Shown: positions 15,437 through 43,954, counted from the first letter of the stretch. The stretch: 64,000 nucleotides of DNA from Bacillota bacterium (GCA_050952625.1 JBMNLH010000001.1:1472001-1536000), one strand, 5' to 3'. The notes: generated by a model from the letters alone, not told the origin. Translations and numbers: made by a program.

Positions 15437-15662
15437 AGCATTTTCTCCTCTACGGCTTATTTTACCACTACCACTCATTCGGTACAATTCTGCAAGTTGA
15501 CTCAGCACTGGCTTATATCAAGCTAATTAATCCAATCTGTACATTGCAACCGCAAGGTGCCAATTAGAAATAACACCTATGTAACTTTCTCCACTTTATT
15601 GTTTTATCCAATATTTTCAAGTATAATGGATGTAGATTTAAAAGTTCTAGGTGGTCACCGTT

Positions 15663-15920
15663 TTGAAAATTATCTTTACCTTACATGCGGAAAAACAACT
15701 TAAAGAAAGAAGTATAGCCAAAGAAACGGTGTATAAAACTGTGCTCAACCCTGACCAGGTAATCCCACAAGACGAAGGTATATTTTTATTTCAATCAGTT
15801 TATTATGAGAATAATAAACAATATTTACTTCGAGTGGCAGTAAAACTTCAATCTGATAGATGTTTAATTATTACCGCTTATCGAACTTCTAAGATTCAAA
15901 AATATTGGGGGGAAGACTAA
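15663..15920 (+). CDS. DUF4258-like (RelE-fold) putative toxin
   Basis: KIIFTLHAEKQLKERSI...PD...LRV...IITAY; TAATG overlap with the next gene; TATAAT at 15622-15627. Confidence 0.8.
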   Translation: MKIIFTLHAEKQLKERSIAKETVYKTVLNPDQVIPQDEGIFLFQSVYYENNKQYLLRVAVKLQSDRCLIITAYRTSKIQKYWGED

Positions 15921-16141
15921 TGAGATTTCGCTATGACCCTAAAGCCGATGCAATATATATCCGTTTTAATGAAGGAATAGTTGATGAAACAGACGAAGTA
16001 TTTCCGGGTATAATGCTGGACATTGATATGGAAGGAAACCCAGTGGGTCTGGAAATACTTAATGCCTCTAAAAAACTTGGTAAGCCGCCACTCACGGTTG
16101 AGGTGGAAATACCCGAAAAATTGGAACAAGAGGCACTTTAG
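15920..16141 (+). CDS. DUF2283-like putative antitoxin
   Basis: MRFRYDPKADAIYIRF...LDID..G.PVGLEILNASK. Confidence 0.85.
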   Translation: MRFRYDPKADAIYIRFNEGIVDETDEVFPGIMLDIDMEGNPVGLEILNASKKLGKPPLTVEVEIPEKLEQEAL

Positions 16142-16249
16142 AACAGAATTAAAGATAACTTAGCTTAAGCCAAGCCTTTGGCACCGGCGAAAGCCTTAGT
16201 TGCACTTACTTATAATCAGAAAGTCCACTTATACTTTCTGATTATGCGA

Positions 16250-16290
16250 GAAAGGCCTCCGAAAAACACTTCGAGGCCTTTCTTTTTTTC
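16250..16290 (+). terminator. Intrinsic terminator after TA pair
   Basis: gaaaggcctc(c)gaa...ttcgaggcctttc followed by T7. Confidence 0.75.
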
Positions 16291-16500: not shown

Positions 16501-17241
16501 TTAATCACCAAGAATCCCCTGGTTTTTGCCGTGAGGAGTTGTCAATTCCCGATTGCGTTCCTGCCAGATCGTTTTCCCGACAAATATGAGAATGCTCAGC
16601 GCAAACAAGATCAATAATCCAAAAACAAATGTCTTCACACTACCAACCAGCATATCCCCTACATAAGAGTAGATCAAGGTAGCCGGTAGCTGCCCCAGGC
16701 CGGTCGCCCAGAAAAATTCCCAAAAACCAATTGCCGTTAAACCAGCTGCATAACTAACGATATCAAAGGAAACAAAAGGTAATAGGCGGGCAACCAAAAC
16801 AGCCCATTTCCCATACTTTTCGAAAAAGATATCTACCTGCTTTAAAGCCGACCGAGTAGTTAGTTTTTCGACAACTGACCGTCCATAAACCCGAGCAATT
16901 GCATAACACAAAACAGCACCAACCATAGCACTACTCCAGGATAGGATCGCCCCCTTAACCCAGCCAAATAAACCAGCATTGGCAAAAGTAATGACAAACG
17001 CAGGCAGCGGAGCAATTAAAGATTGAAAAACCATCAATAAAAAGGAAACAACCGGTGCCCACAACCCAAAAGACAGGATATATCCTTTGACCACCGAAAC
17101 GTTAACCATGGATAAAATGAAAATTGCTTGTTTTACGGCTGCCTGAAATGGGCCGACAAACAGATAAAGGCAAACCGGTACAACAATAATCGCCAGCTTA
17201 AACCATAGTTTGTTCCATAATTTGTCTTTTTCACTTATCAT
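16501..17241 (-). CDS. TVP38/TMEM64 (YdjZ-like, DedA superfamily) membrane protein
   Basis: FQSLIAPLPAFVITFANAGLFG, ARLLPFVSFDIVSYAAGLT, GQLPAT. Confidence 0.9.
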   Translation of the reverse strand: MISEKDKLWNKLWFKLAIIVVPVCLYLFVGPFQAAVKQAIFILSMVNVSVVKGYILSFGLWAPVVSFLLMVFQSLIAPLPAFVITFANAGLFGWVKGAILSWSSAMVGAVLCYAIARVYGRSVVEKLTTRSALKQVDIFFEKYGKWAVLVARLLPFVSFDIVSYAAGLTAIGFWEFFWATGLGQLPATLIYSYVGDMLVGSVKTFVFGLLILFALSILIFVGKTIWQERNRELTTPHGKNQGILGD

Positions 17242-17289
17242 AAATAAACTTCCCTTTTCGATAAGACATATGTCCTGACTGTCTTTCAA

Positions 17290-18288
17290 TCACAACTTAA
17301 AAAATCGGGATGGACCCTCTAATACTTTCCACTCTGCTTCACTAAAGATGCTTTGACACCGGTTTACGTCATAACCTCGGCTATGCTCCGTATTATTAAC
17401 GGTATCCCGAGGATTAGACCCAGCTTCTGCCCACAGTAAATTGGCTCCGGCGATGGCTCCTAACACATTTGGCTCGTGGGTACAGTTTCCGGGAATCGCA
17501 AGACCCATCGCCAGCCGAACTACCGCAAGAATATGGGCCATCCGGGCTTCACTAACCATTCCCTGAGTACTCAGACTGGTTCCGGGGATGCCGATGCGTC
17601 GGGCTGCCCCGCTGAAGACTGGTCGAGCTTTCCGGGTGATGATCGTTTTTTCAACCAGTTCGTCCTGGCTGTGTTCCGGTCCGACTGGCTCCACGCAGGT
17701 ACCCAACTGAAGCCCAGCTTTAGCGGCTGCTTGAAAGGAATTCAGACGTTTTTGGATTTCAATCCGGGTCACCTGTCCCTCCCCTAGACGCACAGCATGG
17801 TAAACACCGGTAAAGCCTGTTTCTTTTAAAGCCATGGCTTCTTGATCGCCAAAATCGCCAATATTAGCAATTAATGGAATCTCCTTTTTTAATTCCTGCC
17901 GAACTACTTTTCCGATACGTAAAAACTGGTCAAGTCTAAAGTTCGCGGTTGCCATAAGGTAGATCGCATTGGCCCCGGCCTTTTGTAATTCAAGGCATTT
18001 TCTGATGATATCCTCTAGGGGTTCCACCCGGTGCTTTTTGAAGATCCGATTACTGGCAGCAAAAGAACAGAAACCGCAATCACACGGACATGGCCCGCTG
18101 TTAACTCCCACCTGGCCATGGACCTCGGCCTGTCCGTTAGAGCTTTCTTCACTCATCTTTCTTGCGGCCAGCTGAATCTGCGACGACTCTTCGGTAAAAA
18201 GCGGAACAGCAAATAGGGCCCGAATCTCTGCGACTTCGAGCTGCCGGCCAGCCAGAGCTTGATCAACAATAGTTTTAATGGTAGTCAT
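17290..18288 (-). CDS. Radical SAM protein, BioB-like architecture, function unknown
   Basis: CxxxCxxC (CPCDCGFC), N-terminal helix followed by A..R as in BioB/HydE-like enzymes; ATG 18288 directly after upstream stop. Confidence 0.85.
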   Translation of the reverse strand: MTTIKTIVDQALAGRQLEVAEIRALFAVPLFTEESSQIQLAARKMSEESSNGQAEVHGQVGVNSGPCPCDCGFCSFAASNRIFKKHRVEPLEDIIRKCLELQKAGANAIYLMATANFRLDQFLRIGKVVRQELKKEIPLIANIGDFGDQEAMALKETGFTGVYHAVRLGEGQVTRIEIQKRLNSFQAAAKAGLQLGTCVEPVGPEHSQDELVEKTIITRKARPVFSGAARRIGIPGTSLSTQGMVSEARMAHILAVVRLAMGLAIPGNCTHEPNVLGAIAGANLLWAEAGSNPRDTVNNTEHSRGYDVNRCQSIFSEAEWKVLEGPSRFFKL

Positions 18289-18290
18289 AT

Positions 18291-19025
18291 TTATGGCCAA
18301 ACTCCTTCCGCATATTTTTGCACAATCCGTTTTGCACACTGATATGCATTTAACTTTTGATACTCTTGATTATCGCTTAACTGGCCTCGTTCATAGAAAT
18401 AAAGCAGGTCCGGCCAGGTGTCAATGTCCGCTTTGATTTCTAACATAGAACAAATTAGACCTTTTTTAACAGTTGCCTCTAGTGTCCGCTGAAAAACAGT
18501 CTCTGTCCCCCAGGGTATATTATAAAATAGTTCTGGATGGACCTTTTTCATACCTAACAGGTAGTAACCTCCATCCACTGCTGGTCCTAGAACCAGATCA
18601 CTTACCGCCAAGCTCAAGATCGCCCGTCTCAACAGCTCGGGGCTAAGATCAGGTAAATCACTGCCAAGCAAAATAACCGCCTCATACAATGAGAGGATGT
18701 CCTCAGCGGCATGCAACATTCTTTCGCCCAGTTCATGCCCTATTTGCGGCTTTATCTGAAAGTTGCGGTATTCTGTCGGAAGCAAAGACCATAGCTCATC
18801 CTGTGACCACTGGACCAACCTTGTTACTTGGTAATCAATTTCGGCCGTGTTGCCTGTATAATAAAGGTAACCAGGCAGGTCTGCGTTTCGAACATGGTGG
18901 TAGATATCTAGTAAACAGGCCCGGTGAAAAGCGGCACACTCATCGCCCGATAGTTTGGTCATTAAACGCGTCTTGGTAACTCCAGCTACTGGAAGCCTGC
19001 TCATAATCACTACAGCCGCCCTCAT
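18291..19025 (-). CDS. TIGR04282/DUF2064-type glycosyltransferase (rSAM/selenodomain-associated transferase 1)
   Basis: P..G.TKTRL, Q.G..LGERM, LLGSDLPDL, VLGPAVDGGYYLLGM, IPWGT..VF..T, DIDTWPDL. Confidence 0.88.
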   Translation of the reverse strand: MRAAVVIMSRLPVAGVTKTRLMTKLSGDECAAFHRACLLDIYHHVRNADLPGYLYYTGNTAEIDYQVTRLVQWSQDELWSLLPTEYRNFQIKPQIGHELGERMLHAAEDILSLYEAVILLGSDLPDLSPELLRRAILSLAVSDLVLGPAVDGGYYLLGMKKVHPELFYNIPWGTETVFQRTLEATVKKGLICSMLEIKADIDTWPDLLYFYERGQLSDNQEYQKLNAYQCAKRIVQKYAEGVWP

Positions 19026-19088
19026 ACTGCCTCCTGGGAATTAGAATTTTATAAACAAGCCCGGTGGTAGGACTGGAGTTTTGTCCCC

Positions 19089-19787
19089 TCATCCAACCTT
19101 ACGAGGATTAACACCATACCATTGCAACAGTCGTTCCGGCTTAACTCCCAATCGATACAGGATTTTTATTACCTGCATTTTACAAATCGTCCGCAGTAGA
19201 CCCCCTTCATAGAACCGACGGGCACTAGTTTCAACCTTACCCGTGATTACATGAGCCCGCTTCAGCCGACGCAGGGTCCGTGAAAACTCAAGATCTTCCA
19301 AAAAGACCATCTCTGGAAACTGGCCAGCTTGAAAAAATAGATCTCTCTGGCAAAAGATCCCTTGGTCTCCATAACAACTGCTCAAACAACGGGCTCTAAG
19401 GTTGGAAAATAAGGCAATGATAGAGAAAAATATTGACTTATCGTTAAATGCCAGGGTGCAACATCCCCATTGATAACCGCGAGATAATGCCGCCCGAATG
19501 TCAGTCAATGTTCGTTCTTCAATCACTGAATCCGCATGGAGAAAGAACAGAATATCGCCGGAAGCTTTCTGAGCACCCGTATTTAACTGGACACCGCGGC
19601 CAGGGGCTGAATTAAGCACCTGAACCGGATAGTGCCGGCATATCTTAACCGTCTCGTCCCGGCTTCCCCCATCACTGACAATAATTTCGATTCCGGGCCA
19701 AGCTACTAATTGTTCGAGTAGACCACCAATCTGCTCTTCTTCATTAAGCGTGGGGATGATGATTGAGATTTTCTGAGGCACTGGCAT
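19089..19787 (-). CDS. TIGR04283-type family 2 glycosyltransferase (rSAM/selenodomain-associated transferase 2)
   Basis: ISIIIPTLNEE, DGGSRD, GRGVQLNTGA, FLHADS, YGDQGIF, LEDLEF, TSARRF. Confidence 0.9.
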   Translation of the reverse strand: MPVPQKISIIIPTLNEEEQIGGLLEQLVAWPGIEIIVSDGGSRDETVKICRHYPVQVLNSAPGRGVQLNTGAQKASGDILFFLHADSVIEERTLTDIRAALSRGYQWGCCTLAFNDKSIFFSIIALFSNLRARCLSSCYGDQGIFCQRDLFFQAGQFPEMVFLEDLEFSRTLRRLKRAHVITGKVETSARRFYEGGLLRTICKMQVIKILYRLGVKPERLLQWYGVNPRKVG

Positions 19788-20196
19788 CCAAAACGCCCTC
19801 CCACTCTCTAACCAGCATTTCCACAGCTTGCCCGGTCAGTTCAATACAGGCCCGATTGCCGATATTTTGCAAGACATGACGCTTTTTCTTGATTACCCGG
19901 CAGCAGGTAGCACCAAATTGCTGTTTAAATATATCATGCAGCAGACCCGACAATTTGGGGCCCAGCGGATGAGAAGAATGCCTCTCTAGAACCCCAGAGA
20001 CCATAATCATCCCCGCCAGAGCCCCGCAGGTACACCCACTGCCCATACCTCCGCCGAACAGGGAAGCGGCGGCCAGGATATCCTCGCCGACGGGCACGGC
20101 CAGGACCTGGCTAGCAGCAATAATTACTGATTGACAGCAGTTATGGCCGCACTTCATTTGTTCCTGGGCAATCCGAGCTGCTTTTGACGCTAACAT
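19744..20196 (-). CDS. C-GCAxxG-C-C family putative redox protein
   Basis: HNCCQSV, FGGGMGSGCTCGALAG, FGATCCR, late Cys in RACIEL. Confidence 0.88.
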   Translation of the reverse strand: MLASKAARIAQEQMKCGHNCCQSVIIAASQVLAVPVGEDILAAASLFGGGMGSGCTCGALAGMIMVSGVLERHSSHPLGPKLSGLLHDIFKQQFGATCCRVIKKKRHVLQNIGNRACIELTGQAVEMLVREWEGVLDASASENLNHHPHA

Positions 20197-21133
20197 CAGC
20201 TATCTCTCCTCTAGTTCGCTGATTCAGCCATACCCAGCCTCCATAGAGGCTGCACAAACTTACCAAAAATGCAAAGAGTAAAGAAGAAGCAAAGGCAGTC
20301 CCTTTGACTACACCATAGGAGGCGAGTAGGAACACGTAGGCTCCCTCCCTTAATCCATAGCCGTTAATCCCGACCGGTAACATAGCGGCAACCGAAGTAA
20401 CCGGGATAATATAAAGCGCATCCCACCAAAGTAGGTTGGAGATTTGCAGAGCTTGAAAAATAGATAGATTAACCCCAACAACTGAGACCTGGAAGGCAAC
20501 TGATAAGACCCCAACATAAATGATTCGGTACCACTGCCCTTGGAGACAACGACCGTGGCTTTCAATGCCTCTGAGAAAGTTTAATAGTCGGCCGGTCCGC
20601 TTGTTTGTCCAGGCAGGCAGATGTCCCCAGAGGATGAGGCTCAGCAGTCCCAAACTAACCAGAACGAGCAGTAAAAAGAGCATGACCGCCTTTCGATCCG
20701 GTTGAACCACGAAAAAACTGGCCATTAAGCCGGTTAGGGCTAGACCGCCGGTGGCCAGGATGCGCTCAACGACTACCGAGGCGACAGCCCCGGGTGTATC
20801 ACCAGTGGCTTCTCGGACCCAGTAGATCCGCCAGGCATCCCCACCGATACTGGATGGCAGGAAATTGTTTAAGAAAAGTCCTGTCCAGTAGGCTTGCCAC
20901 AGTTCTTTCCATTTTAAGTTTATACCTTGAGCTTTTAAGACTGCCTGCCATTTCGCCACGCTCAAGAGCATGGAGATAATAATCCAGACAACCGCCAGCG
21001 TTATCCAGGTAAGTTTGACACTGGTTAACACCTGAAGCAATTGGGGCCAGTCGATCGAGTACGCTAGCCAGCCCATTAGGGCAACGGAGACAATACCGCG
21101 CCCAAGAATATTCCACAGCGACTGCTTACCCAT
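20141..21133 (-). CDS. Lysylphosphatidylglycerol synthase TM-domain (UPF0104, flippase-like) membrane protein
   Basis: FLNNFLPSSIGGDAWR, SVVVERI, LPVGINGYGLRE; multiple TM segments. Confidence 0.88.
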   Translation of the reverse strand: MGKQSLWNILGRGIVSVALMGWLAYSIDWPQLLQVLTSVKLTWITLAVVWIIISMLLSVAKWQAVLKAQGINLKWKELWQAYWTGLFLNNFLPSSIGGDAWRIYWVREATGDTPGAVASVVVERILATGGLALTGLMASFFVVQPDRKAVMLFLLLVLVSLGLLSLILWGHLPAWTNKRTGRLLNFLRGIESHGRCLQGQWYRIIYVGVLSVAFQVSVVGVNLSIFQALQISNLLWWDALYIIPVTSVAAMLPVGINGYGLREGAYVFLLASYGVVKGTAFASSLLFAFLVSLCSLYGGWVWLNQRTRGEIADVSVKSSSDCPGTNEVRP

Positions 21134-21277
21134 GAAGATAATGTCCCTATCTTTTTAATTGATGGGTAGAATAGCCCAATAAGCTATCTGCCAGTTACCA
21201 TGCAACGTAACCGGCAGAGCTTTTGTGTTAATTCTTGCTTAATAAATGGTTACCAACTGATAGCGATAATTATTGTT

Positions 21278-22210
21278 CTATCTTTCAACTGTTAAAGACT
21301 GGTTGCCAGCCCACTCGTGATAGGAAGCGTCATAGTTCCTGGCTTTAGTAAAGCCGACCATTCTCATAACCTGGGACATGTGAGCTGACCGAATACCGGC
21401 GGTGCAGTAAGTTACTATCTCATCATCTAGATTGAGTCCAGCCGCCGTAAACAACTGCTTGATTTCGTCCGAGCTCTTTAAGGTACCATCCTGGTTAAAC
21501 ATATTTTCAAACGGGAGGCTGATGGCTCCAGGCAGATGCCCGCCACGGACTTCACCATAATCAGTCGCCCCACCATATTCCTTACTGGAACGGGAGTCGA
21601 CAATCTTAATGTTCTTCTGGTTGCTGATAATCCAATCAGTGGTGGCATTCATGCTTTCATCAAGGCTGGCTATCTCAAACTTTACCGGGGCTGGTTGAAC
21701 TTTATCCTTACTAATCTCATCATTTATTGCTTTCCAGGCCGCTAGGCCACCGTCCAATATTTTAACATCCTTAATACCGGCCATTTTTAACATCCACAGA
21801 ATACGGCCGTCTTCACCCCAACCCGGCGGTTGGGCATAAACGATAACTGGTTTATCTCCGCTAACCCCTAATTGGCCGATCTTAGCCGCTAGTTGCTCTT
21901 TGGGCAACAACACGCCCCAACCAGGGTCACCCGGTTTTTTGCCTTCCATACTGGTAAAGCTCTGCCACACGGCACTAACCGCCCCGGGAATATGACCAGA
22001 ATTGTAATCCTTCTCAGGCCTGGCATCAATAACTACTACGTCGCTCAGGTTAGCCTTAAGCCAGTTCGCATCAACAAAAAGGGTACTTTTTAATTGGTCC
22101 ATTTGGGCAGACTGGTTTTCCGGTGGTGCTGGGGTGTTCCCGCCACAACCCACAAGACTGACCAGCATCACCACTAATAAGGACAGAACCGCGACTTTTC
22201 TTCCCCACAT
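21278..22210 (-). CDS. Tandem-rhodanese sulfurtransferase lipoprotein (YnjE/SseA-like)
   Basis: Lipobox LVGC, GHIPGAV, ILDGGLAAW, GHLPGAI, active-site loop YCTAGIRS, YDASYHEW. Confidence 0.92.
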   Translation of the reverse strand: MWGRKVAVLSLLVVMLVSLVGCGGNTPAPPENQSAQMDQLKSTLFVDANWLKANLSDVVVIDARPEKDYNSGHIPGAVSAVWQSFTSMEGKKPGDPGWGVLLPKEQLAAKIGQLGVSGDKPVIVYAQPPGWGEDGRILWMLKMAGIKDVKILDGGLAAWKAINDEISKDKVQPAPVKFEIASLDESMNATTDWIISNQKNIKIVDSRSSKEYGGATDYGEVRGGHLPGAISLPFENMFNQDGTLKSSDEIKQLFTAAGLNLDDEIVTYCTAGIRSAHMSQVMRMVGFTKARNYDASYHEWAGNQSLTVER

Positions 22211-22376
22211 GAATCTCGTACCTCCTCAAACAAAATCAAAAATTATAACTTCCTACTATATAAATTATAACTACCTGGTATATTATAACAGAACGGACGT
22301 TATACGTCTAATAACTATTAGTTATAGGAGGTTCGTGTTAGTACTTGTTTTAGTTATAGTTTGCCAGCTTTGAGTT

Positions 22377-22498: not shown

Positions 22499-24685
22499 TC
22501 ACCCCTGAGATGAATGTTTGACTCCAAGAAGCCTCATCCCGTTTAACGTTACCAACAGCGAACTGCCCATGTCTCCGACGATCGCCAGCCACAAGGTTAA
22601 CCAACCGGGGATAACCAGGAGTAGAATCACTCCTTTGATAGCCAGGGAAAGAACAATATTCTGCTTGATGATACGCTGGGTTCGTCGACTCAGGTCAATG
22701 GTGTAAGGTAATTTAGACAAATCATCCGTCATTAGGGCAATATCGGCGGTTTCCAGAGCTGTATCAGTCCCAGCTGCACCCATAGCAATGCCCACAGTCG
22801 CGCTGGCCAGGGCCGGGGCATCGTTGACGCCATCCCCGACCATGGCCACTTTAGCGTGTTCCGCCATCAACTTTTTTATCGCAACTGCTTTATCTTTCGG
22901 CAACAAATCTGCCTTAACCTCGTCCACTCCTAGGTTGCTGGCAATCGCACGGGCGGTCCGCTCATTATCCCCGGTCAGCATCACCACTTTATTAAGGCCG
23001 ACTTTTTTCAGTTGCTCAATAGCTGCTCGACTAGTATTTCTTAAACCATCAGCTACGGCGATCGACCCGAGGATCTTTTCTTCATCGCCCAGGACCATCG
23101 CTGTTTTGCCTTCCTGTTGAAGCTGGGTAATCGCTGCTTCCACCTTGGCTAGGGAAATCCCTTGTTCCTGAAAGAAACCCACCTTGCCGATGGAGTATTT
23201 TCGACGATTAACTATACCCTGGGCCCCTTTACCCAAAACTGCTTCGAATTGGGTTACTGATGGGATAGTAATTCCTTGTTCTTTGGCATAATTTACAATT
23301 GCTTCCCCCAGCGGGTGGCCGGAGCGGGACTCAATGGCGGAAGCCAGGGTGAGTAGTTCCTCACGGCTGCTGCCGTTTAAGGGAAGGATATCGGTTACCT
23401 GGGGTTTGCCCTGCGTGAGGGTGCCGGTCTTATCAAAGGCAATGACCGAAAGGTTCCCGATTTCTTCCAGGTAGGCCCCGCCTTTGATTAAAACCCCGTT
23501 CCGGGCGGCACTGCTAATCGCGGAAGCAATTGATACTGGAGTGGAGATAACCAACGCACAGGGGCAGGCGACCAACAGCATGGCCAGGGCCTCATAAAAC
23601 CACTGATTAAAGGACTGGTTAAAAGCCAGCGGGGGGATTATGGCCACCAAGGCCGCCGCCATAATCACCAGAGGGGTATAGTAACGAGCGAACTTGTCGA
23701 TAAACTGTTGGGAGGGGGCCCGCTGGCCCTGGGCTTCTTCGACCAGATGAATAATCCGGGCCAGGGTGTTATCTTTGGCCAGTTTCGTGACCGCAATTTC
23801 CAGAGCCCCCTGCTCATTGATCGTCCCGGCAAACACCTCGTCGCCGGGTTGTTTATCCACCGGCAAAGACTCACCGGTAATCGGGGCCTGGTTGACCGTG
23901 GAGGCACCCCTGACGACCCGGCCATCCATGGGGATCCGTTCCCCTGGTCGCACGATTACTGTGTCGTCAAGGCGAATCGCCTCAACTGGCAGTATCATTT
24001 CCTGATTGTTGCGCCGAACCAGAGCCTCGTTGGGGGTTAGTTCCATCAAGGCCCGAATTGAATTCCGGGTCTTATCCAGGGTATAGCCCTGCAGGGCATT
24101 GCCCAGGGAAAACAGGAAGACCACGACCGCGCCTTCCTCAAGCTGACCGATCGCGACGGCCCCAAGCACGGCCAGCATCATTAAAGTGTTCATGTCTAGC
24201 TCCCGCGCTTTCAGCAGCATTGCCAAACCATTTTTCGCCGGGAGATAGCCGCCCAAGACGATTCCAATGAGATAGATGGGGTGGACAATTGAGTCCGGCA
24301 AGCCCACTAAATGCTGCAGGCTAACGGCCAGGCCGATGATCGCTCCTGAAATAATCGTTGATCGAGCATATCTATTAGTCTTCCAGAATGCAGCTGGCGG
24401 TTGATCATTGGCCTTCGCTCCTTCCAGGGTTCCGCTGTAGCCGAGTTCTTCGATGATGTGCATCAGCTCCGCTATTGACCCACGGTGGGTGACATCTAGT
24501 TTGGCGGCCCCAAAATTAACACGGGCGGTTTCTACCTCGGGGACCGCTTGGATCCTTTTTTCTAACTTGGCTGCGCAATCGGCACAATCCAGACCGCTGA
24601 TTCGGATGGTGGTATCTCGGAGAATGGTTCCGGTACTATGGTCAGTTGTTAGATCCTTCATGTTGATTTCCACTGCTTTCCCCAT
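22499..24685 (-). CDS. cadA: Cd/Zn/Pb-transporting P1B-type ATPase
   Basis: HMA GLDCADC, TGES, CPCALVISTP, DKTGTLT, HP, GDGVNDAPAL, QNI...IK, DMG. Confidence 0.93.
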   Translation of the reverse strand: MGKAVEINMKDLTTDHSTGTILRDTTIRISGLDCADCAAKLEKRIQAVPEVETARVNFGAAKLDVTHRGSIAELMHIIEELGYSGTLEGAKANDQPPAAFWKTNRYARSTIISGAIIGLAVSLQHLVGLPDSIVHPIYLIGIVLGGYLPAKNGLAMLLKARELDMNTLMMLAVLGAVAIGQLEEGAVVVFLFSLGNALQGYTLDKTRNSIRALMELTPNEALVRRNNQEMILPVEAIRLDDTVIVRPGERIPMDGRVVRGASTVNQAPITGESLPVDKQPGDEVFAGTINEQGALEIAVTKLAKDNTLARIIHLVEEAQGQRAPSQQFIDKFARYYTPLVIMAAALVAIIPPLAFNQSFNQWFYEALAMLLVACPCALVISTPVSIASAISSAARNGVLIKGGAYLEEIGNLSVIAFDKTGTLTQGKPQVTDILPLNGSSREELLTLASAIESRSGHPLGEAIVNYAKEQGITIPSVTQFEAVLGKGAQGIVNRRKYSIGKVGFFQEQGISLAKVEAAITQLQQEGKTAMVLGDEEKILGSIAVADGLRNTSRAAIEQLKKVGLNKVVMLTGDNERTARAIASNLGVDEVKADLLPKDKAVAIKKLMAEHAKVAMVGDGVNDAPALASATVGIAMGAAGTDTALETADIALMTDDLSKLPYTIDLSRRTQRIIKQNIVLSLAIKGVILLLVIPGWLTLWLAIVGDMGSSLLVTLNGMRLLGVKHSSQG

Positions 24686-24724
24686 TCTTTCATCCCCCTT
24701 GCGGTATATATAACTACACTCTCT

Positions 24725-25123
24725 TCACTCCATGACGTGCTCCAGCCCTTGCCCAAACAACTTCTCGATATGCTTGTCTGCTAAAGAGTAGTATAAGACC
24801 TTGCCGTCCCGCCTAAATCTGACTAATTTTTGGTTTCGCAACACCCTTAATTGGTGAGAAACAGCTGACTCCGATACCCCAATTACGGCGGCCAGATCAC
24901 AAACACATAATTCGTGGTTCATTAGGGCAAACAGCAGGTTAACCCGTGTAGGATCGCCTAGGGTTTTAAAAAGTTCGGCTAATGACCGAGCAATGTCTAC
25001 GTCAATCATTCGCTCGCGCACTTCTTTAACGCTGTCTTCATGAATGCAGGTTATGTCACAGCGGTCAACTACGATTTCTTGGTTAATTGCCTGACTTACT
25101 TTTCGATTCAGTTCCTTGGTCAT
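24725..25123 (-). CDS. cadC: ArsR/SmtB family metal-sensing repressor (CadC-like)
   Basis: N-terminal CDITCIH, FKTLGDPTR, ELCVCDLA, SAVSHQLR, alpha5 DKHI...GLEHVME. Confidence 0.88.
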   Translation of the reverse strand: MTKELNRKVSQAINQEIVVDRCDITCIHEDSVKEVRERMIDVDIARSLAELFKTLGDPTRVNLLFALMNHELCVCDLAAVIGVSESAVSHQLRVLRNQKLVRFRRDGKVLYYSLADKHIEKLFGQGLEHVME

Positions 25124-25181
25124 TCTTTTATTCCCACCCCCGTAATTCAGATATTTTTCTCTTAATATTTTTCACTTAGGT

Positions 25182-25244
25182 AACATATGAACAGATATTC
25201 AAATGTTCAGTTATAAGTTTATACGTTTATGGTAACTTGGTCAA
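25182..25244 (-). promoter_or_regulatory. cadC promoter and SmtB/CadC-type operator
   Basis: Operator AACATATGAA-cagata-TTCAAATGTT (25182-25207); minus-strand TTGACC-17 nt-TAAACT (25244-25216). Confidence 0.8.
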
Positions 25245-25335
25245 CTGGAAAACCATTTTATATGGTTATCCTTTACCAAACCTTCTCTTTATGCAAAGAA
25301 TAGAATATAATATTTACAAAAGAAGGTGTTTTGAG

Positions 25336-26260
25336 ATGGACGCAAGAATAACAAAACACAATAATGACATCATCATGAAAGCAATGATTGAAACATTTAA
25401 GGATAAGACCCTGAAGGTATTTGGCCTCGAAACCGCTAAGATAGTTGAAGTTATTCCAACTGTTTTACCTGTGCTAGAGGTCAAAGAGAATCGGACCTCC
25501 GATTGGGCAACCTCCTGGAAGGAAGCTGGAAAACGTGCTAGAGGTCAAAGAGAATCGGACCGACTATATTTTTCTCTTGGAGGACAATACCTTATTACAC
25601 TTGGAATTTGCTACCGCTATCACAAAGGGAATCCTGAACCGGTTTGCTCTATACGATGCAAGACTTATTAGCCGAGATGATCGACATGTTAATACAGCAG
25701 TTGTCTATTCTGGGCGAGTGGAGACAGCACCAAGTGTACTGAAAAGGGGATCAATTACTTACCGTGTTACAAATGTCTATATGAAAAGTTTTGATGGCGA
25801 CTTGGAGTACCAACGATTGCGCGATAAAATTGAGAATAATGAAACCCTGACCGAGGAAGATACCCTGAAGCTGGTTTTTCTACCCCTGATGAAAAGTGAG
25901 AATTCCGAAGACGAGATGGCCATTCAAGCCGCGGAACTGGCTAAGGAGATCAAGGGAGAGATCAAGACGCTTATTATCGGAGCAATTGTCGCTATTACCG
26001 ATAAATTTATGGCTGAGAACTACAAGAAAAAACTGCTGGAGGTGTTAAGGATGACCCAAATTGAGCAGTGGATCAGGGAAGAAGGTAAAATAGAAGGCAG
26101 ATTAGAAGGTAGATTAGAAGGTAGACTAGAAGGTAAACTAGAAGGCAAAATAGAAATTGCCAAGGCAGCGTTAAAAGAGGGCGCGGATATTGAGTTCGTT
26201 GCTAAAATAACTGGGTTGAGCAACGAAGTTATTCTTAATTTAAAAAGAGAATTGAATTAG
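25336..26260 (+). pseudogene. Rpn/YhgA-like PD-(D/E)XK protein interrupted by a 64-bp frameshifting insertion
   Basis: Two overlapping ORFs share a duplicated LEVKENRT; removing 64 bp gives 286 aa. R.D..F...D...HLEF motif, (E)G(R/K)LE repeats, IAK...EG...EFVAKITGLS C-terminus. Confidence 0.8.
26051..26260 (+). CDS. Putative internally initiated RpnS-like small protein (69 aa)
   Basis: GGAGGTG at 26038-26044, 6 nt before in-frame ATG 26051; covers the 12-bp repeats and the C-terminal helical domain. Confidence 0.6.
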   Translation: MTQIEQWIREEGKIEGRLEGRLEGRLEGKLEGKIEIAKAALKEGADIEFVAKITGLSNEVILNLKRELN

Positions 26261-26339
26261 ATAACATCTCTAATCGCGACGTTCAATTGAGTTGGAAATA
26301 CCGGAAAAATGGCACAAGGGACAACTTAGAGTTAATGCA

Positions 26340-26380
26340 GAAAGGCCTTTGAAGAATCCTTCGGAGACCTTTCCTTTTTC
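26340..26380 (+). terminator. Intrinsic terminator after Rpn-like gene
   Basis: gaaaggcctttgaag...cttcggagacctttc followed by T-tract. Confidence 0.65.
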
Positions 26381-26451
26381 CGAATAAAGGTCTGACCCTC
26401 CTAGAAAAGTTTACCTTAAACGGATGTTTAATGTTTCAATAAAAGTACCAT

Positions 26452-28848
26452 TCAAAGCCGCACTCGTTTCAGCCGCAAAGCGTTACTCACTACGGAAACC
26501 GAACTCAGAGCCATGGCCCCTCCAGCCAGGACCGGACTCAGCAGGCCAGCCGCAGCGACTGGAATCCCCACCAGGTTGTAGATAAAAGCCCAAAACAGGT
26601 TTTGTTTAACGTTACGCATTGTGGCTTGGCTAAGCCGGATTGCGGTCGTAATCGATCGCAGGTCTCCGCGCATCAGGGTGATATCGGCTGCTTCCATGGC
26701 GACATCGGTCCCGGTACCCATGGCAATTCCCACGTCTGCCGTGGCCAAGGCTGGGGCATCGTTAATTCCATCCCCGATCATGGCGACAATTCGGCCCTGA
26801 TCTTTCAGCCTTTGGACTTCTCGGGCCTTATCCTCCGGCAGTACCTCAGCCAGGACCTGATCAATCCCAACTTCTTTGGCGATGGCCCGGGAGGTCCGCT
26901 GGTTATCCCCGGTGATCATCCACACCTGAATCCCCATGTTCTTCAGTTCTTGAATCGCCGCGGCTGAGTGTTCCTTGACTGTATCCGCCACCCCGATAAC
27001 CGCAGCGACAGATTGGTCAACGGCCAATATGACCGTGGTTTTGCCGGCCCCCTCTAATTCTTCTAGAATCGGCTGCACTGATTCCACACTAATTCCCTGC
27101 TCTTCCAAAAAAGGCCGGGTTCCCATCAGGACCTGCCGGCCTTCGACGCAGGAAACCACACCCTTCCCGGGCACGGCTGTAAATTCCTCCGGATCAATCA
27201 GGTCAAACCCAGGTGTCCTTGCCAAGGCTCCTTGCACAATTGCCTGGGCCACCGGGTGCTCGGATAGTTTTTCAACTCGGGCGGCCCAGTTTAATAGCAC
27301 CGCCTCTTGACTGGCGTACAGCCCAACCGCCACAAAATCTGTTAGGGCTGGTTCACCCTTGGTGATAGTACCGGTCTTGTCCAACACCACGGTATCCACC
27401 CGGTGCGCTCGTTCCAGGTGCTCCCCGCCGCGAATCAGGATCCCGTTTTCCGCTCCCCGGCCGGTTCCAACCATGATCGAGGTGGGCGTTGCTAATCCCA
27501 TGGCACACGGGCAGGCAATCACCAGAACCGCGGTGGCACTAATCAGGGCGCGCGAAAAGTTGCCTGGGGCCACCCCCCAGTACCAGATTGCAAAGGTACT
27601 GAGGGCAATGACAACCACCACCGGGACAAAATAGCTGGCGACCAGGTCTGCCAACCGTTGGATTGGAGCCTTGGAACCCTGGGCCTCTTGGACTACGCGA
27701 ATGATTTGGGCGAGCACCGTATCCCGGCCGACTCGGGTGGCTTCGATTTTCAGCACCCCAAACTTGTTCACCGTGGCCCCGGCCACCAAATCGCCTGACT
27801 GTTTGTCAACTGGTACGCTTTCCCCAGTTAGCATTGATTCATCAACCGCTGAGTAGCCTTCTTTGACCTGGCCATCCACGGGGATTCGCTCTCCAGGCCG
27901 CACGACCACCAGATCACCGACCATTACCTCGGTGGTGGGAATTTCTCGTTCCTGCCCGGCCCGAATAACCCGGGCGGTTCGGGGTTGGAGGCCCATCAGC
28001 TTCCGGATCGCTTCTGAGGTTCGGCCTTTGGCCAAAGATTCCAGGTACTTGCCCAGTAAAATCAGGGTGATCAAGATGGCACTGACCTCAAAATACAGAT
28101 GGGTATGCGGCGTCAAGAAACCAATTCCCAGACTATAAAAATAAGCAGAACTGGTTCCCAAAGCTACCAGCACGTCCATATTGGCACTGCCGCTGCGCAG
28201 GGCACTAAAAGCCCCGCGGTAAAAGGGATAGCCGGCGATAAACTGAACCGGGGTCGCTAGCAGCACCTGCGTTGAAAAGGCGGTCAACCACCTGGGTAGA
28301 GCAAAACCCAGGAATTCTCCCAACATCATAATTAGAAAGGGTACAGACAGGGTTGCGGAAAACAGGAGGAGTCGAAGTCTCTGCCGTATTTCCCCAGATT
28401 CAGTTTTTTGTACCTCTTCTTCCTGTAAAGTGGTTGCCGGACGAGCCTCAAAACCCAGGCGCGCAATAGTTCCAACAAGGTCTTCCACCACCACTTCGGT
28501 TGGAAGGTATTCGACTGTCGCCGTCTCTGTAGCCAGGTTAACACTGGCCTTTTCTACCCCGGCCAGTTTATTCAGCCCTTTTTCGACCCGGGCCACACAG
28601 GCAGCGCAGGCCATGCCTTTAATTTTTAGCTCGATCTTTTCCGTTGGCACCGTGAAGCCCAGCCGTTCAATCTGTTCTACCAGACCAGACACCGCCAGAA
28701 CCTCCGGGTCATATTCGACTGAGGCTTGCTCCAGGGCTAAATTTACCTGGGCGTGGTTAACCCCAGGCAGCCGACTCAGGCCCTTTTCAATTCGGGCCGA
28801 ACACGCAGCACAGCTCATTCCCTTCACTTTCAACGATACCCGCTGCAT
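26452..28848 (-). CDS. copA: Cu(I)-transporting P1B-type ATPase
   Basis: Two HMA domains (GMSCAAC, GMACAAC), [36 protein letters not shown]. Confidence 0.95.
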
Positions 28849-32088: not shown

Positions 32089-32907
32089 ATGCTCAGCTCG
32101 GCTAAACTCAATTCAATCGTTTCTTTAATTACCAGCTTTAACAGCGTGCTGGTAGCTTTGTCCGGGGGAGTGGACAGTTCGGTGCTCCTGAAGCTGGCCG
32201 TTAACTGCCTGGGGCCAGCTAAGGTGCTGGCTGTCACCATCCGTTCCGAAATCACTACCCCCGAAGAGCTAGCCATGGCGGCCCGCATTGCGCAAATCTG
32301 CCAGGTCAACCACGAAGTTCTGACTGTGGCTGATCTGTTGGTGCCCGAATTCGCGGCAAACTCCCCGGAACGCTGCTACTACTGTAAGCTCAACCGTTTC
32401 TGTCTGTTACAAGAGCTAGCCAGCAGCCGGGGCTATCAGGTTGTCGTGGATGGTTCCAACTGGTCCGACCAAGCCGACTACCGCCCGGGAATGCGAGCCT
32501 TAAATGAGTTGGGCATCCGCAGTCCTTTGAGGGAATGTGGCTTCACCAAGGAGGATATCCGTCAATTGGCCAAGAGCTTTGGTCTCCCCAACTGGCAGCA
32601 ACCCGCTAATGCCTGCCTGGCCTCCCGTTTTCCCTATGGAACACCTATTGCCGCGGAAGCTCTCGCTCAAGTGGCCAAAGGTGAAAGACTGCTGCTCTCC
32701 CTCGGCCTCACTCAGTGCCGGCTCCGGCATCATGGCCCGATCGCCAGGATTGAGGTGGTTCCTGGAGAATTCCCGCTTATTCTGGATCCAGCTCACCGGG
32801 AAGCAATCATAACCGGGCTTAAGCAGCTCGGCTATACCTATGTAACCCTTGATCTTCAAGGATACCGCACTGGGAGTCTTAACGAGGTTGTTTCCGTGTC
32901 CCGGTGA
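32089..32907 (+). CDS. larE: ATP-dependent sulfur transferase LarE
   Basis: PP-loop SGGVDSS, RCYYCK, DYRPG, SPL, ACLASRFPYG, RLRHHG..ARIE, TLDLQGYRTGSLNE. Confidence 0.92.
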   Translation: MLSSAKLNSIVSLITSFNSVLVALSGGVDSSVLLKLAVNCLGPAKVLAVTIRSEITTPEELAMAARIAQICQVNHEVLTVADLLVPEFAANSPERCYYCKLNRFCLLQELASSRGYQVVVDGSNWSDQADYRPGMRALNELGIRSPLRECGFTKEDIRQLAKSFGLPNWQQPANACLASRFPYGTPIAAEALAQVAKGERLLLSLGLTQCRLRHHGPIARIEVVPGEFPLILDPAHREAIITGLKQLGYTYVTLDLQGYRTGSLNEVVSVSR

Positions 32908-43306: not shown

Positions 43307-43954
43307 TTACTCTTCTCTTTTTAATAAGCCGTCTGGTTGGGACTGATTCCTTCTATACACTACGTAACCAAGACCGGCAACTAAAAATAAAACTAAGATT
43401 ATTGGCAACCAGTAGTGCTGGATGGACCGGGACACTCTAAACCAGCCTTCACCTAGAAACCGACCCAAACTAACAAATAGAACAACCCAGAATATTCCGC
43501 CTATATAGGCATAAAGTGCAAAAGTACGGTAAGGCAAGTGACTTATGCCTGCAAAATAAGCCATAAAATGTCGAACACCCGGCACAAAATAACCGATAGG
43601 AAGAGCAAACTTGCCAAACCGGTTAAACCACTTCTCGACCTGATCAATTCTTTTTTGCGTCAGTCCAATCCGGTTTCCAAAACGATCTATAATGGGGATT
43701 CCAATGTTTCGTCCAATTAAAAAACTGATTGTTACTCCGGTTAAACTGCCGATAATGGCCGAAATAAGTGTTGGCACGTATTCCAGCCGACCAGCATACA
43801 CTAAATACCCGATAAAAACCATAACTGTTTCTTCTGGCAGCGGTAAGCCGACCATGCCACCGGCTAGAAACCAAAATATCGCTAAATAACCGTAGTGCGA
43901 AACCAGGACACTTGCATTTTCAAACATCATTACTGTAGGATTTTCAAACCTCAT
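43307..43954 (-). CDS. DedA family membrane protein
   Basis: GLPLPEET, F.RFG......YFVPGVRH..AYFAG. Confidence 0.9.
   Translation of the reverse strand: MRFENPTVMMFENASVLVSHYGYLAIFWFLAGGMVGLPLPEETVMVFIGYLVYAGRLEYVPTLISAIIGSLTGVTISFLIGRNIGIPIIDRFGNRIGLTQKRIDQVEKWFNRFGKFALPIGYFVPGVRHFMAYFAGISHLPYRTFALYAYIGGIFWVVLFVSLGRFLGEGWFRVSRSIQHYWLPIILVLFLVAGLGYVVYRRNQSQPDGLLKREE

Follow-up and report, generated by a model that had tools for sequence, protein, structure and literature searches.

Bacterial arsenosugar clusters combine the methyltransferase ArsM and the radical S-adenosylmethionine (SAM) enzyme ArsS with a pair of transferases (families TIGR04282 and TIGR04283) annotated as "rSAM/selenodomain-associated transferases 1 and 2". 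According to PMC12159101, ArsS adenosylates arsenic. The steps that follow ArsS in arsenosugar and arsenolipid synthesis are without assigned enzymes, and no function is described for TIGR04282 or TIGR04283, so far known as computational families, in the literature covered (bioRxiv supplements aside). A second related system, the uncharacterised ydjXYZ-ynjABCDE cluster of E. coli, whose genes receive only passing mention in the literature covered, presumably contains neither a radical SAM enzyme nor a transferase pair; a cluster of this type comprises genes for a VTT protein, YdjY, a CMD/AhpD-like protein, an ABC transporter and an exported rhodanese. DedA proteins, of the same superfamily as VTT proteins, are reported in 10.1101/2022.02.03.479048 as polyprenyl-phosphate transporters. 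Here we analyze an array of seven genes that shares components with these systems. It is located at positions 16501-22210 of a 64,000-nt stretch of DNA (GCA_050952625.1, JBMNLH010000001.1:1472001-1536000; hereafter the window), which is chromosomal DNA of a spore-forming Firmicute, as judged from the presence of DnaE, AddAB, SpoIID and a SigW-like sigma factor.

All seven open reading frames (ORFs) lie on the minus strand, and neighbouring genes abut or overlap, several of them overlapping (gaps of 0-144 nt, the widest between the rhodanese and UPF0104 genes). In the direction of transcription they encode (i) a two-domain rhodanese lipoprotein (21278-22210; PF00581, 9.8e-34, two stretches; lipobox LVGC), (ii) an LPG_synthase_TM/UPF0104 flippase-like polytopic membrane protein (20141-21133; PF03706, 2e-34), (iii) a C_GCAxxG_C_C Cys-rich protein (19744-20196; PF09719, 4.1e-22), (iv) a soluble family 2 glycosyltransferase (GT2; 19089-19787; TIGR04283, 250 bits, cutoff 182), (v) a DUF2064/TIGR04282 CofC-like nucleotidyltransferase-fold protein (18291-19025; 171.2 bits, cutoff 134), (vi) a radical SAM enzyme of an unnamed family (rSAM; 17290-18288, ORF open to 18339; PF04055, 28.4 bits) and (vii) a VTT/TVP38-type membrane protein of the DedA superfamily (16501-17289; PF09335, 2e-28). 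The boundaries match exactly those given in an earlier, sequence-only reading of the window, and Pfam and NCBIfam agree for each gene on the family assigned there.

We consider it possible, with a probability of roughly 40%, that the seven genes form one predicted transcription unit encoding a biosynthesis and export pathway linked to the membrane. Such a pathway would be of the "rSAM-associated transferase 1/2" type, to which the ArsS arsenosugar clusters also belong, but with a different, unnamed radical SAM family at its core. The product would probably be an S-, Se- or As-bearing sugar conjugate, made and exported, that is undescribed so far. This reading is built on the identity of the radical SAM enzyme, the conservation of the gene set and the properties of the partner proteins.

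The start codon of rSAM is most likely the ATG at 18288, 2 nt past the DUF2064 stop codon, since homologues measure 330-337 aa and the protein predicted from this start has 332 aa. Its CxxxCxxC motif (C67/C71/C74 in the 332-aa form) is invariant in 81/81 family members, i.e. the window protein and 80 fetched relatives, and this motif together with a TIM-barrel SAM-binding fold places the protein among the radical SAM enzymes; the PF04055 score is slightly below the gathering score of 29.5. Further invariant residues include C198 (within GTCVEP), C269 (within NCTHEPN, C269-T-H-E-P-N), several His/Glu and about eight Arg/Lys residues. The two Cys motifs quoted in the sequence-only reading (TCVEP and NCTHEP) are present, and their cysteines are invariant throughout this set, although the invariance of NCTHEP is partly by construction because NCTHEPNxxG served as one of the two search patterns used to collect the loci; that of the remaining residues is unaffected by this pattern.

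The earlier description of the enzyme as BioB-like in fold, but neither BioB nor ArsS, proved correct. Assignment to BioB was rejected on the basis of a TIGR00433 score of 45.8 bits (equivalog cutoff 225), and assignment to ArsS because no TIGR04167 match was obtained at E<=0.01; the real ArsS proteins of two related loci (L029 and L036) are encoded by separate genes. The scores against the PylB and HydE models were 28.7 bits (cutoff 348) and 20.1 bits (cutoff 255), respectively. An AlphaFold model (15 homologues; pLDDT 84, pTM 0.86) is a complete TIM barrel, for which Foldseek returned HydE (TM 0.81), 8vdw (type II BioB; 0.80), PylB (0.78) and E. coli BioB (0.75), all at 13-17% identity; a profile search of PDB sequences gave 8vdw (4.6e-13) and 1r30 (8.2e-8). 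The rSAM family is distinct, has a full TIM barrel of the BioB/HydE/PylB class and is about equidistant from all three. None of the dedicated Pfam or NCBIfam models matched it, a protein-atlas look-up gave no structure and no clusters other than generic "radical SAM / biotin synthase" ones, and in the literature covered (with the same exception as above) we found no description of either the family or the operon.

A word-indexed search identified 1995 rSAM relatives at E<=1e-5, and an exhaustive search of 1.84 billion representatives gave 984, 513 and 222 clusters (50% identity) at E<=1e-3, 1e-10 and 1e-30, respectively. Since only 9 of the 150 best representatives keep both Cys motifs (pattern match), the strict rSAM family is a subfamily of a wider BioB-like clade. 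No fused long forms were found at E<=1e-20 in the word-index search, which is weak evidence; the exhaustive search did yield fusions, in a sister subfamily of the wider clade. In P0214 a sister-subfamily rSAM is joined to an ArsM-type methyltransferase (NF008823, 253 bits, cutoff 263), and in P0218 to a cysteine desulfurase (TIGR01977, 399 bits, cutoff 377; SclA-like, 367 bits). Both proteins are without C198 and the CTHEP segment. Fusions to a peroxiredoxin and to PadR, as well as tandem forms, also occur in the wider clade.

The conservation of the gene set was examined in the best-scoring 80 of 192 rSAM relatives obtained by a genome scan (loci L001 onwards), whose flanks of up to 10 kb were searched with the window proteins. 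Many of the contigs are short (metagenome-assembled genomes, MAGs), so the partner counts are lower bounds. GT2 was found near rSAM in 38 of the 80 loci, VTT in 35, DUF2064 in 34, C_GCAxxG_C_C in 24, UPF0104 in 21 and the rhodanese in 20; all six partners accompany rSAM in 15 loci from several phyla, in at least three different gene orders. Such an arrangement, conserved in anaerobic bacteria, is far beyond chance, and the co-occurrence of rSAM with the TIGR04282/TIGR04283 pair, on which the sequence-only reading depended, holds across phyla. In a quick maximum-likelihood tree the window protein falls into a Bacillota clade of 30 rows (SH-aLRT 97), and among the Bacillota loci GT2 is present in 27/28 and DUF2064 in 28/28. 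The remaining clade (51 rows) has about 10 loci with GT2 close by. These come from Nitrospirota, Pseudomonadota/Desulfobacterales, Planctomycetota/Omnitrophota and Armatimonadota, and the gene set recurs in at least four non-Bacillota subclades. Rearranged orders or orientations were observed in L004, L008, L017, L020 and L028 (Pelotomaculum, Desulfotomaculaceae, Desulfoscipio, Sporotomaculum), and two genomes contain two copies or versions of the system (L004/L008 and L010/L020). The varying orders and orientations favour selection on the gene set over inherited synteny.

The partner proteins were compared with their family models. The GT2 product exceeds the TIGR04283 cutoff, and all 36 of the GT2 genes adjoining rSAM in other loci match the same model; the DUF2064 protein exceeds that of TIGR04282 (also PF09837, 9.9e-29; CofC, 2.5e-7; PDB 3cgx, 5.7e-22), a model also matched by 34/34 of its counterparts neighbouring rSAM, and its invariant residues are P12, K18 and R20 (KTRL) and G121, D123 and P125 (GSDxP). 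The C_GCAxxG_C_C protein belongs to its family by both TIGR01909 (61.8 bits, cutoff 47.4) and PF09719 (78.9 bits, cutoff 27). It has no signal peptide, which indicates a cytoplasmic location, and an alignment of 23 sequences showed that C20, C57, C99 and C117 are conserved and C55 and C98 nearly invariant. The UPF0104 protein, with approximately 7-8 hydrophobic segments, scores 43.4 bits with TIGR00374 (cutoff 43.2). The VTT protein scores 99.8 bits with PF09335 (cutoff 33.9); it was rejected as an UptA orthologue (NF052604, 33.8 bits, cutoff 250) and is placed in the VTT domain family only. A second DedA-family gene of the window (43307-43954, minus strand) reaches 111 bits with the UptA model, also below the cutoff of 250, and because it scores far better than the operon protein, the latter is regarded as a divergent TVP38-type paralogue.

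A survey of long GT2 relatives (120 listed among 130 at E<=1e-25) revealed fusions between components of the operon. Among the 120 matches listed, at least 113 combine PF00535 with PF09837 (DUF2064) and at least seven combine PF00535 with PF03706 (flippase-like). One listed relative, P0354, adds a rhodanese (TIGR04282+TIGR04283+rhodanese), and P0370 joins a PF03706 region to TIGR04283; NCBIfam agrees in both cases. These fusions link four of the seven operon products and suggest that the acceptor is membrane-associated. The suggestion of the sequence-only reading that the product is membrane- or lipid-linked is plausible, given that GT2 is fused to a flippase-like domain in these relatives.

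The rhodanese contains its catalytic Cys269 in the motif YCTAGIRS, within a six-residue loop that we take to be of the sulfurtransferase type, and is a rhodanese by its domains and active site; its score of 124.9 bits is below the 3-mercaptopyruvate sulfurtransferase equivalog cutoff of 250. Its extracytoplasmic location, predicted earlier, is supported by the signal peptide with lipobox in the window protein and by the rhodaneses of related clusters, two-domain and single-domain alike, all of which start with lipoprotein or signal peptides. In 10 loci the codon aligned with C269 of the window protein is TGA and the frame continues beyond it (VY-U-TMGIRSG). Nine of these genes encode the operon rhodanese (L004, L005, L008, L017, L020, L028, L063, L065 and L066) and the tenth (L021) a more distant rhodanese. 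The L063 protein loses similarity soon past the TGA, and this copy may be broken or misassembled. A hairpin with 16 predicted pairs, one of them compensatory, is located 16 nt downstream of the UGA in 8 of the 10 genes. The in-frame TGA together with the conserved hairpin indicates a predicted selenocysteine (Sec) form of the operon rhodanese.

Within the 288 nt that precede the rhodanese gene lies a promoter-like sequence (TAGACG-17-TATAAT, TG-extended; 22310-22282, minus strand). Its -35 hexamer abuts a perfect 7-1-7 palindrome, ATAACTA-A-TAGTTAT (ATAACTAnTAGTTAT; 22311-22325, minus strand), downstream of which GTTATAAT half-site repeats extend to approximately 22240. With up to two mismatches, the palindrome occurs upstream of the operon heads in 7/67 loci compared with 1/434 other intergenic regions, and a search across the loci gave 10 matches versus about 3 expected. 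Positions recorded for it outside the window are L001:784, L002:6131, L003:2930, L005:7040, L019:593, L024:646, L026:6954 and L055:9135. ATAACTAnTAGTTAT is found upstream of the operon or of rSAM in both Bacillota and Nitrospirota. The palindrome is probably an operator controlling expression of the operon. In some Desulfosporosinus loci the operon is preceded by a LysR gene, and in L023, L037 and L047 rSAM has a Fur-family gene directly next to it. Rfam scores for the operon and its surroundings were all well short of the gathering scores, and the idea of a leader riboswitch or another known RNA was dropped.

These features can be combined into a model in which rSAM would act in the cytoplasm, using its [4Fe-4S]/SAM site and a second site formed by the invariant C198, C269 and H271 and neighbouring residues, to make or modify a heteroatom-bearing precursor, with S or Se most likely here and As where ArsS/ArsM adjoin. 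The chemistry could be a BioB-like insertion, or the 5'-deoxyadenosyl radical could attack the heteroatom as in HydE and ArsS. The CofC-like DUF2064 protein would use a nucleotide to activate a phosphorylated intermediate, and the TIGR04283 GT2 would transfer the activated group to a membrane acceptor of lipid or glycerol type. Translocation of the conjugate, or of its carrier, would fall to the UPF0104 flippase-like and VTT proteins, and on the outer face of the membrane the lipoprotein rhodanese (Cys here, Sec in relatives) may load, unload or exchange the chalcogen. The cytoplasmic C_GCAxxG_C_C protein is a candidate thiol/disulfide redox partner. Its place seems to be taken in other phyla by a MerA/Lpd-like flavoprotein (PNDR, disulfide-reductase type), which the VTT gene adjoins in 7 loci, or by a CCG-domain fusion to VTT (Fer4-CCG-VTT in 5 loci). 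The pathway would probably be switched through the palindrome at the promoter.

That S or Se is installed is reasonable as a guess, and is favoured here because ArsS/ArsM are absent from the window and from most loci, although arsenic stays in play because three to four loci carry them. A 5'-modified adenosine intermediate is speculative: by analogy, it would fit the ArsS and HydE precedents and the gene content of L057, where adenine phosphoribosyltransferase (Apt) and MTAP (TIGR01694, 314 bits, cutoff 275) genes directly follow DUF2064. A fully specified version of the pathway would make rSAM a new carbon-chalcogen/metalloid bond-former whose radical attacks protein- or cluster-bound S or Se held at C198/C269/H271 to yield 5'-thio- or 5'-seleno-adenosine; phosphorolysis of the MTAP type, nucleotidylation by DUF2064 and transfer by GT2 would then lead to a thio- or seleno-ribosyl lipid that is flipped outward and serviced by the Sec rhodanese. 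This chain of steps is distinctly unlikely to be correct in all its detail; if true, it would constitute a bacterial thiolipid/selenolipid pathway parallel to the arsenosugar lipids, and the "arsenosugar" transferases would gain roles.

Several observations weigh against the proposed export pathway. Every chemical step in it is inferred, and no result points to a particular substrate, element or product. BioB is no nearer to rSAM than are HydE and PylB, neither of which inserts sulfur. The MTAP/Apt neighbours could simply salvage 5'-deoxyadenosine, a by-product of any radical SAM enzyme, and the P0214 and P0218 fusions are hints from a sister subfamily that transfer weakly. The link between rSAM and the transferases is tight in Bacillota and loose elsewhere: 42/80 loci have no GT2 within 10 kb, and only 4/21 Nitrospirota loci have it. 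The 80 loci are moreover the best of 192 relatives, many on short MAG contigs, and related genomes inflate the counts. Finally, iron uptake and regulation genes (FeoB, DtxR-FeoA, Fur, TonB-ExbBD with receptor, DUF4198), which are close to rSAM in 15/80 loci and are the commonest neighbours outside Bacillota, are left unexplained by it. Of the original proposal of an undescribed S/Se/As pathway acting on a sugar or lipid, the gene set, the rSAM linkage and the exported rhodanese stand, but the link to a metal module and the general ArsS-free status do not.

The strongest competing explanation, which we regard as possible though somewhat unlikely, is that the operon is a branch of arsenosugar/arsenolipid synthesis with ArsM and ArsS encoded elsewhere in the genome. 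rSAM would then perform an extra step on 5'-deoxy-5'-arsinoyl-adenosine or a ribose intermediate (e.g. thiolation or ribose modification), and the transferase pair, the flippases and the rhodanese would finish and export the product. The NCBI naming of TIGR04282/TIGR04283 follows their ArsS association, and a few related loci carry arsenic genes beside rSAM. In L029 the order is rhodanese - YdjY - GT2 - rSAM - (Fer4-CCG-VTT) - ArsS/ArsM fusion (TIGR04167, 358.5 bits, cutoff 300), the last co-directional with rSAM. L036 (377-9097, a Bacillota MAG) provides the most direct physical link of the rSAM family to the ArsS system, with the order rSAM - paralogous rSAM - TIGR04169 - ArsS - ABC transporter, and a weak TIGR04282-like gene further on; ArsS scores 424.3 bits and the ArsS-associated peroxidase-like TIGR04169 protein 202.7 bits (cutoff 120). 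The L036 transporter is SaoP/SaoA-like, and RpoN and a CCG-domain protein follow. In L020, ArsM (NF008823, 352.9 bits, cutoff 263) and a DedA gene are divergent from UPF0104-rSAM-VTT-rhodanese(Sec), and L021 has a C-terminal ArsM fragment at its edge; the sister-subfamily P0214 fusion to an ArsM-type methyltransferase points the same way.

Set against this, ArsS, ArsM and SelD are absent from 49 of the 52 window ORFs of at least 80 aa (three of 82-92 aa left out), and tblastn of the 64-kb window with the ArsS and ArsS-ArsM proteins of related loci gave no match, so that the combination of ArsM and ArsS with the transferase pair that defines an arsenosugar system is not found within the window. 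ArsS or ArsM is within 10 kb of rSAM in only 3-4 of the 80 loci, there is no other conserved radical SAM/methyltransferase cluster near the 36 GT2-containing loci, and the ArsR and CadA genes of the window are not conserved neighbours. The ArsS/ArsM-free setting stressed by the sequence-only reading thus applies to the window but not to the family, in which ArsS, ArsM or TIGR04169 lies beside rSAM in those 3-4 loci. rSAM may supplement ArsS rather than replace it.

A relay for capture and import of S or Se, related to E. coli ydjXYZ-ynjA-E, is an unlikely alternative to the export pathway. Here the outer rhodanese would capture sulfane sulfur or selenium, VTT would pass it on and the cytoplasmic redox protein would release it, after which rSAM and the transferases would build a cofactor or small molecule and not an exported lipid. 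The exported rhodanese is always present, with a Sec active site in the 10 loci described above, but Sec in this enzyme shows only that those organisms use Sec. SelB/SelD genes lie close to rSAM in 5 loci, three from Nitrospirota and two from Thermodesulfobacteriota, but with only two phyla involved these represent few independent events. A YdjY-domain protein (NF040466, 112.7 bits, cutoff 50) adjoins GT2-rSAM in 4/80 loci, and in others VTT is paired with, or part of a fusion to, a protein of the disulfide-reductase type; the window, however, has neither YdjY nor an ABC transporter. The relay would also be in line with the P0218 fusion to a cysteine desulfurase/SclA-like enzyme and with the published link between DedA proteins and selenite. 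The GT2-flippase fusions argue for an exported or membrane product instead.

It appears quite improbable that rSAM is a HydE-like maturase acting on an iron complex or metallocofactor, with the operon serving metal homeostasis. HydE is structurally as close as BioB, and the 15 loci with iron genes beside rSAM lie outside Bacillota. NUBPL/ParA-type Fe-S ATPase, NifX-like and DUF5320 genes are close to rSAM in 7 loci, and in the Thermoplasmatota MAGs L074, L079 and L080 the co-directional order DtxR/FeoA - FeoB - rSAM is followed by DUF6159, with no transferase pair found on these contigs. The 7-1-7 architecture of the palindrome is presumably that of Fur-family boxes, but an Fe-S enzyme may be Fur-regulated merely as an iron consumer. 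Nearly all Bacillota operons lack iron genes (L003 alone has a FeoB close by), and the transferase pair, flippases and rhodanese would be left unexplained.

An ordinary envelope module, in which GT2, flippase and a DedA-type carrier recycler act with an rSAM that makes a carbon-only change to a sugar and the rhodanese and Cys-rich protein are unrelated passengers, is very improbable. Envelope glycan pathways often include GT2 enzymes with a flippase-like domain and DedA-type proteins, and the polyprenyl-phosphate transport reported for DedA proteins would suit it, but the rhodanese and C_GCAxxG_C_C genes are kept in the set through rearrangements, the rhodanese is fused to DUF2064+GT2 in P0354, the VTT protein is far under the UptA cutoff, and the recurrent thiol-redox, Sec, ArsS/ArsM and SelB/SelD contexts point to heteroatom chemistry.

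The surroundings of the operon in the window are poorly conserved. The sequence-only reading had placed it next to a metal-resistance module and had counted a CMD-like gene as an associated neighbour. The CMD-like gene, YbaK, DUF2889, CadA and ArsR were rejected as parts of the system, being found in 0, 0, 0, 2 and 6 of the 80 loci, respectively, and the association with metal resistance is a local coincidence (CopA is not conserved either). The metal-efflux patch (22499-28848) comprises an ArsR/SmtB regulator and a Cd/Zn-type P1B ATPase (22499-25123) and a CopA whose N-terminus carries two metal-binding domains (26452-28848), with an Rpn-family recombination-promoting nuclease or transposase-like gene between them in a low-GC stretch (25535-26260); this patch is not kept beside the operon in other loci. 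A DUF4258/DUF2283 toxin-antitoxin-like pair (15651-16141, plus strand, 16-nt overlap), located between the operon and the CMD-like gene, is absent from the related loci, and a strong GC-rich hairpin with a T-run at about 16245-16290 is its terminator. A gene for a LarE-type ATP-dependent sacrificial sulfur transferase (32089-32907, plus strand) lies about 10 kb from the operon. LarE and Fer4-CCG protein genes are located within 6 kb of rSAM in L022, L025, L031 and L040 (closely related Nitrospirota), and the proximity of LarE to rSAM may be a coincidence. In L049, L053 and L075 (Planctomycetota, Omnitrophota and related) the order is DUF2064 - small ORF - rSAM - DUF3108 (opposite strand) - GT2 - DUF547 - fatty-acid-hydroxylase-like (OlsE-like), and in L049 a large B12-rSAM/ketosynthase protein is encoded upstream, giving these loci a lipid-flavoured context.

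The operon shows arsenosugar-type transferases paired with a second, unnamed radical SAM family, whose activity would be a new one among radical SAM enzymes. Carriers of this family are widespread among syntrophs, sulfate reducers, acetogens and Nitrospirota, and several are culturable, among them Syntrophomonas wolfei subsp. methylbutyratica, Moorella thermoacetica DSM 21394, Desulfosporosinus metallidurans, Desulfoscipio geothermicus and Sporotomaculum syntrophicum. The operon may lead to glycolipids bearing S, Se or As in anoxic environments in which arsenic and selenium mobility matters, and it gives a setting for the poorly understood TVP38/VTT, UPF0104, C_GCAxxG_C_C and YdjY families as well as for an exported selenocysteine rhodanese.

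Compared with the ArsS/ArsM arsenosugar clusters, the operon has both transferase families and a radical SAM enzyme in common; some relatives also have CMD/AhpD-like, VTT and thiol-redox accessory genes, and in L029, L036 and L020 the two systems are directly adjacent. In contrast to ArsS, rSAM is a full TIM barrel without a TIGR04167 match and without the Cys-rich C-terminal domain, and the operon adds an obligatory extracytoplasmic rhodanese and a C_GCAxxG_C_C protein and is not accompanied by ArsM or ArsS in the window. With E. coli ydjXYZ-ynjABCDE it shares the TVP38/VTT and exported rhodanese components; of the set that makes up such a cluster, the window operon has these two only, without YdjY or the ABC transporter.

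The resemblance of rSAM to BioB, HydE and PylB comprises the CxxxCxxC site and the complete (beta/alpha)8 barrel. Unlike BioB, it has no BATS domain detectable in a Pfam scan, and its family has its own invariant C198 and C269/H271. We take three Cys and one Arg to be the ligands of the auxiliary cluster of E. coli BioB; in a HMMER alignment to 1r30, rSAM has non-Cys residues at the positions assumed for the first two of these Cys, and C198 is two residues off the third. MprF (through its flippase domain) and the DedA/UptA transporters share the PF03706 and PF09335 domains with the operon proteins, but the lysyl-phosphatidylglycerol synthase domain of MprF is absent from the operon protein, which scores 26.2 bits with the MprF model (cutoff 600).

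With the selenoprotein rhodaneses, of which the UxxG type is tabulated in PMC13188914, the operon rhodaneses share the Sec/Cys pair at the catalytic position (U-T-M-G, the UxxG form). The operon enzyme differs in being a two-domain lipoprotein locked in an operon, and the window copy uses Cys. The class of Sec-containing rhodaneses is already known, and its fixed place in this operon is new.

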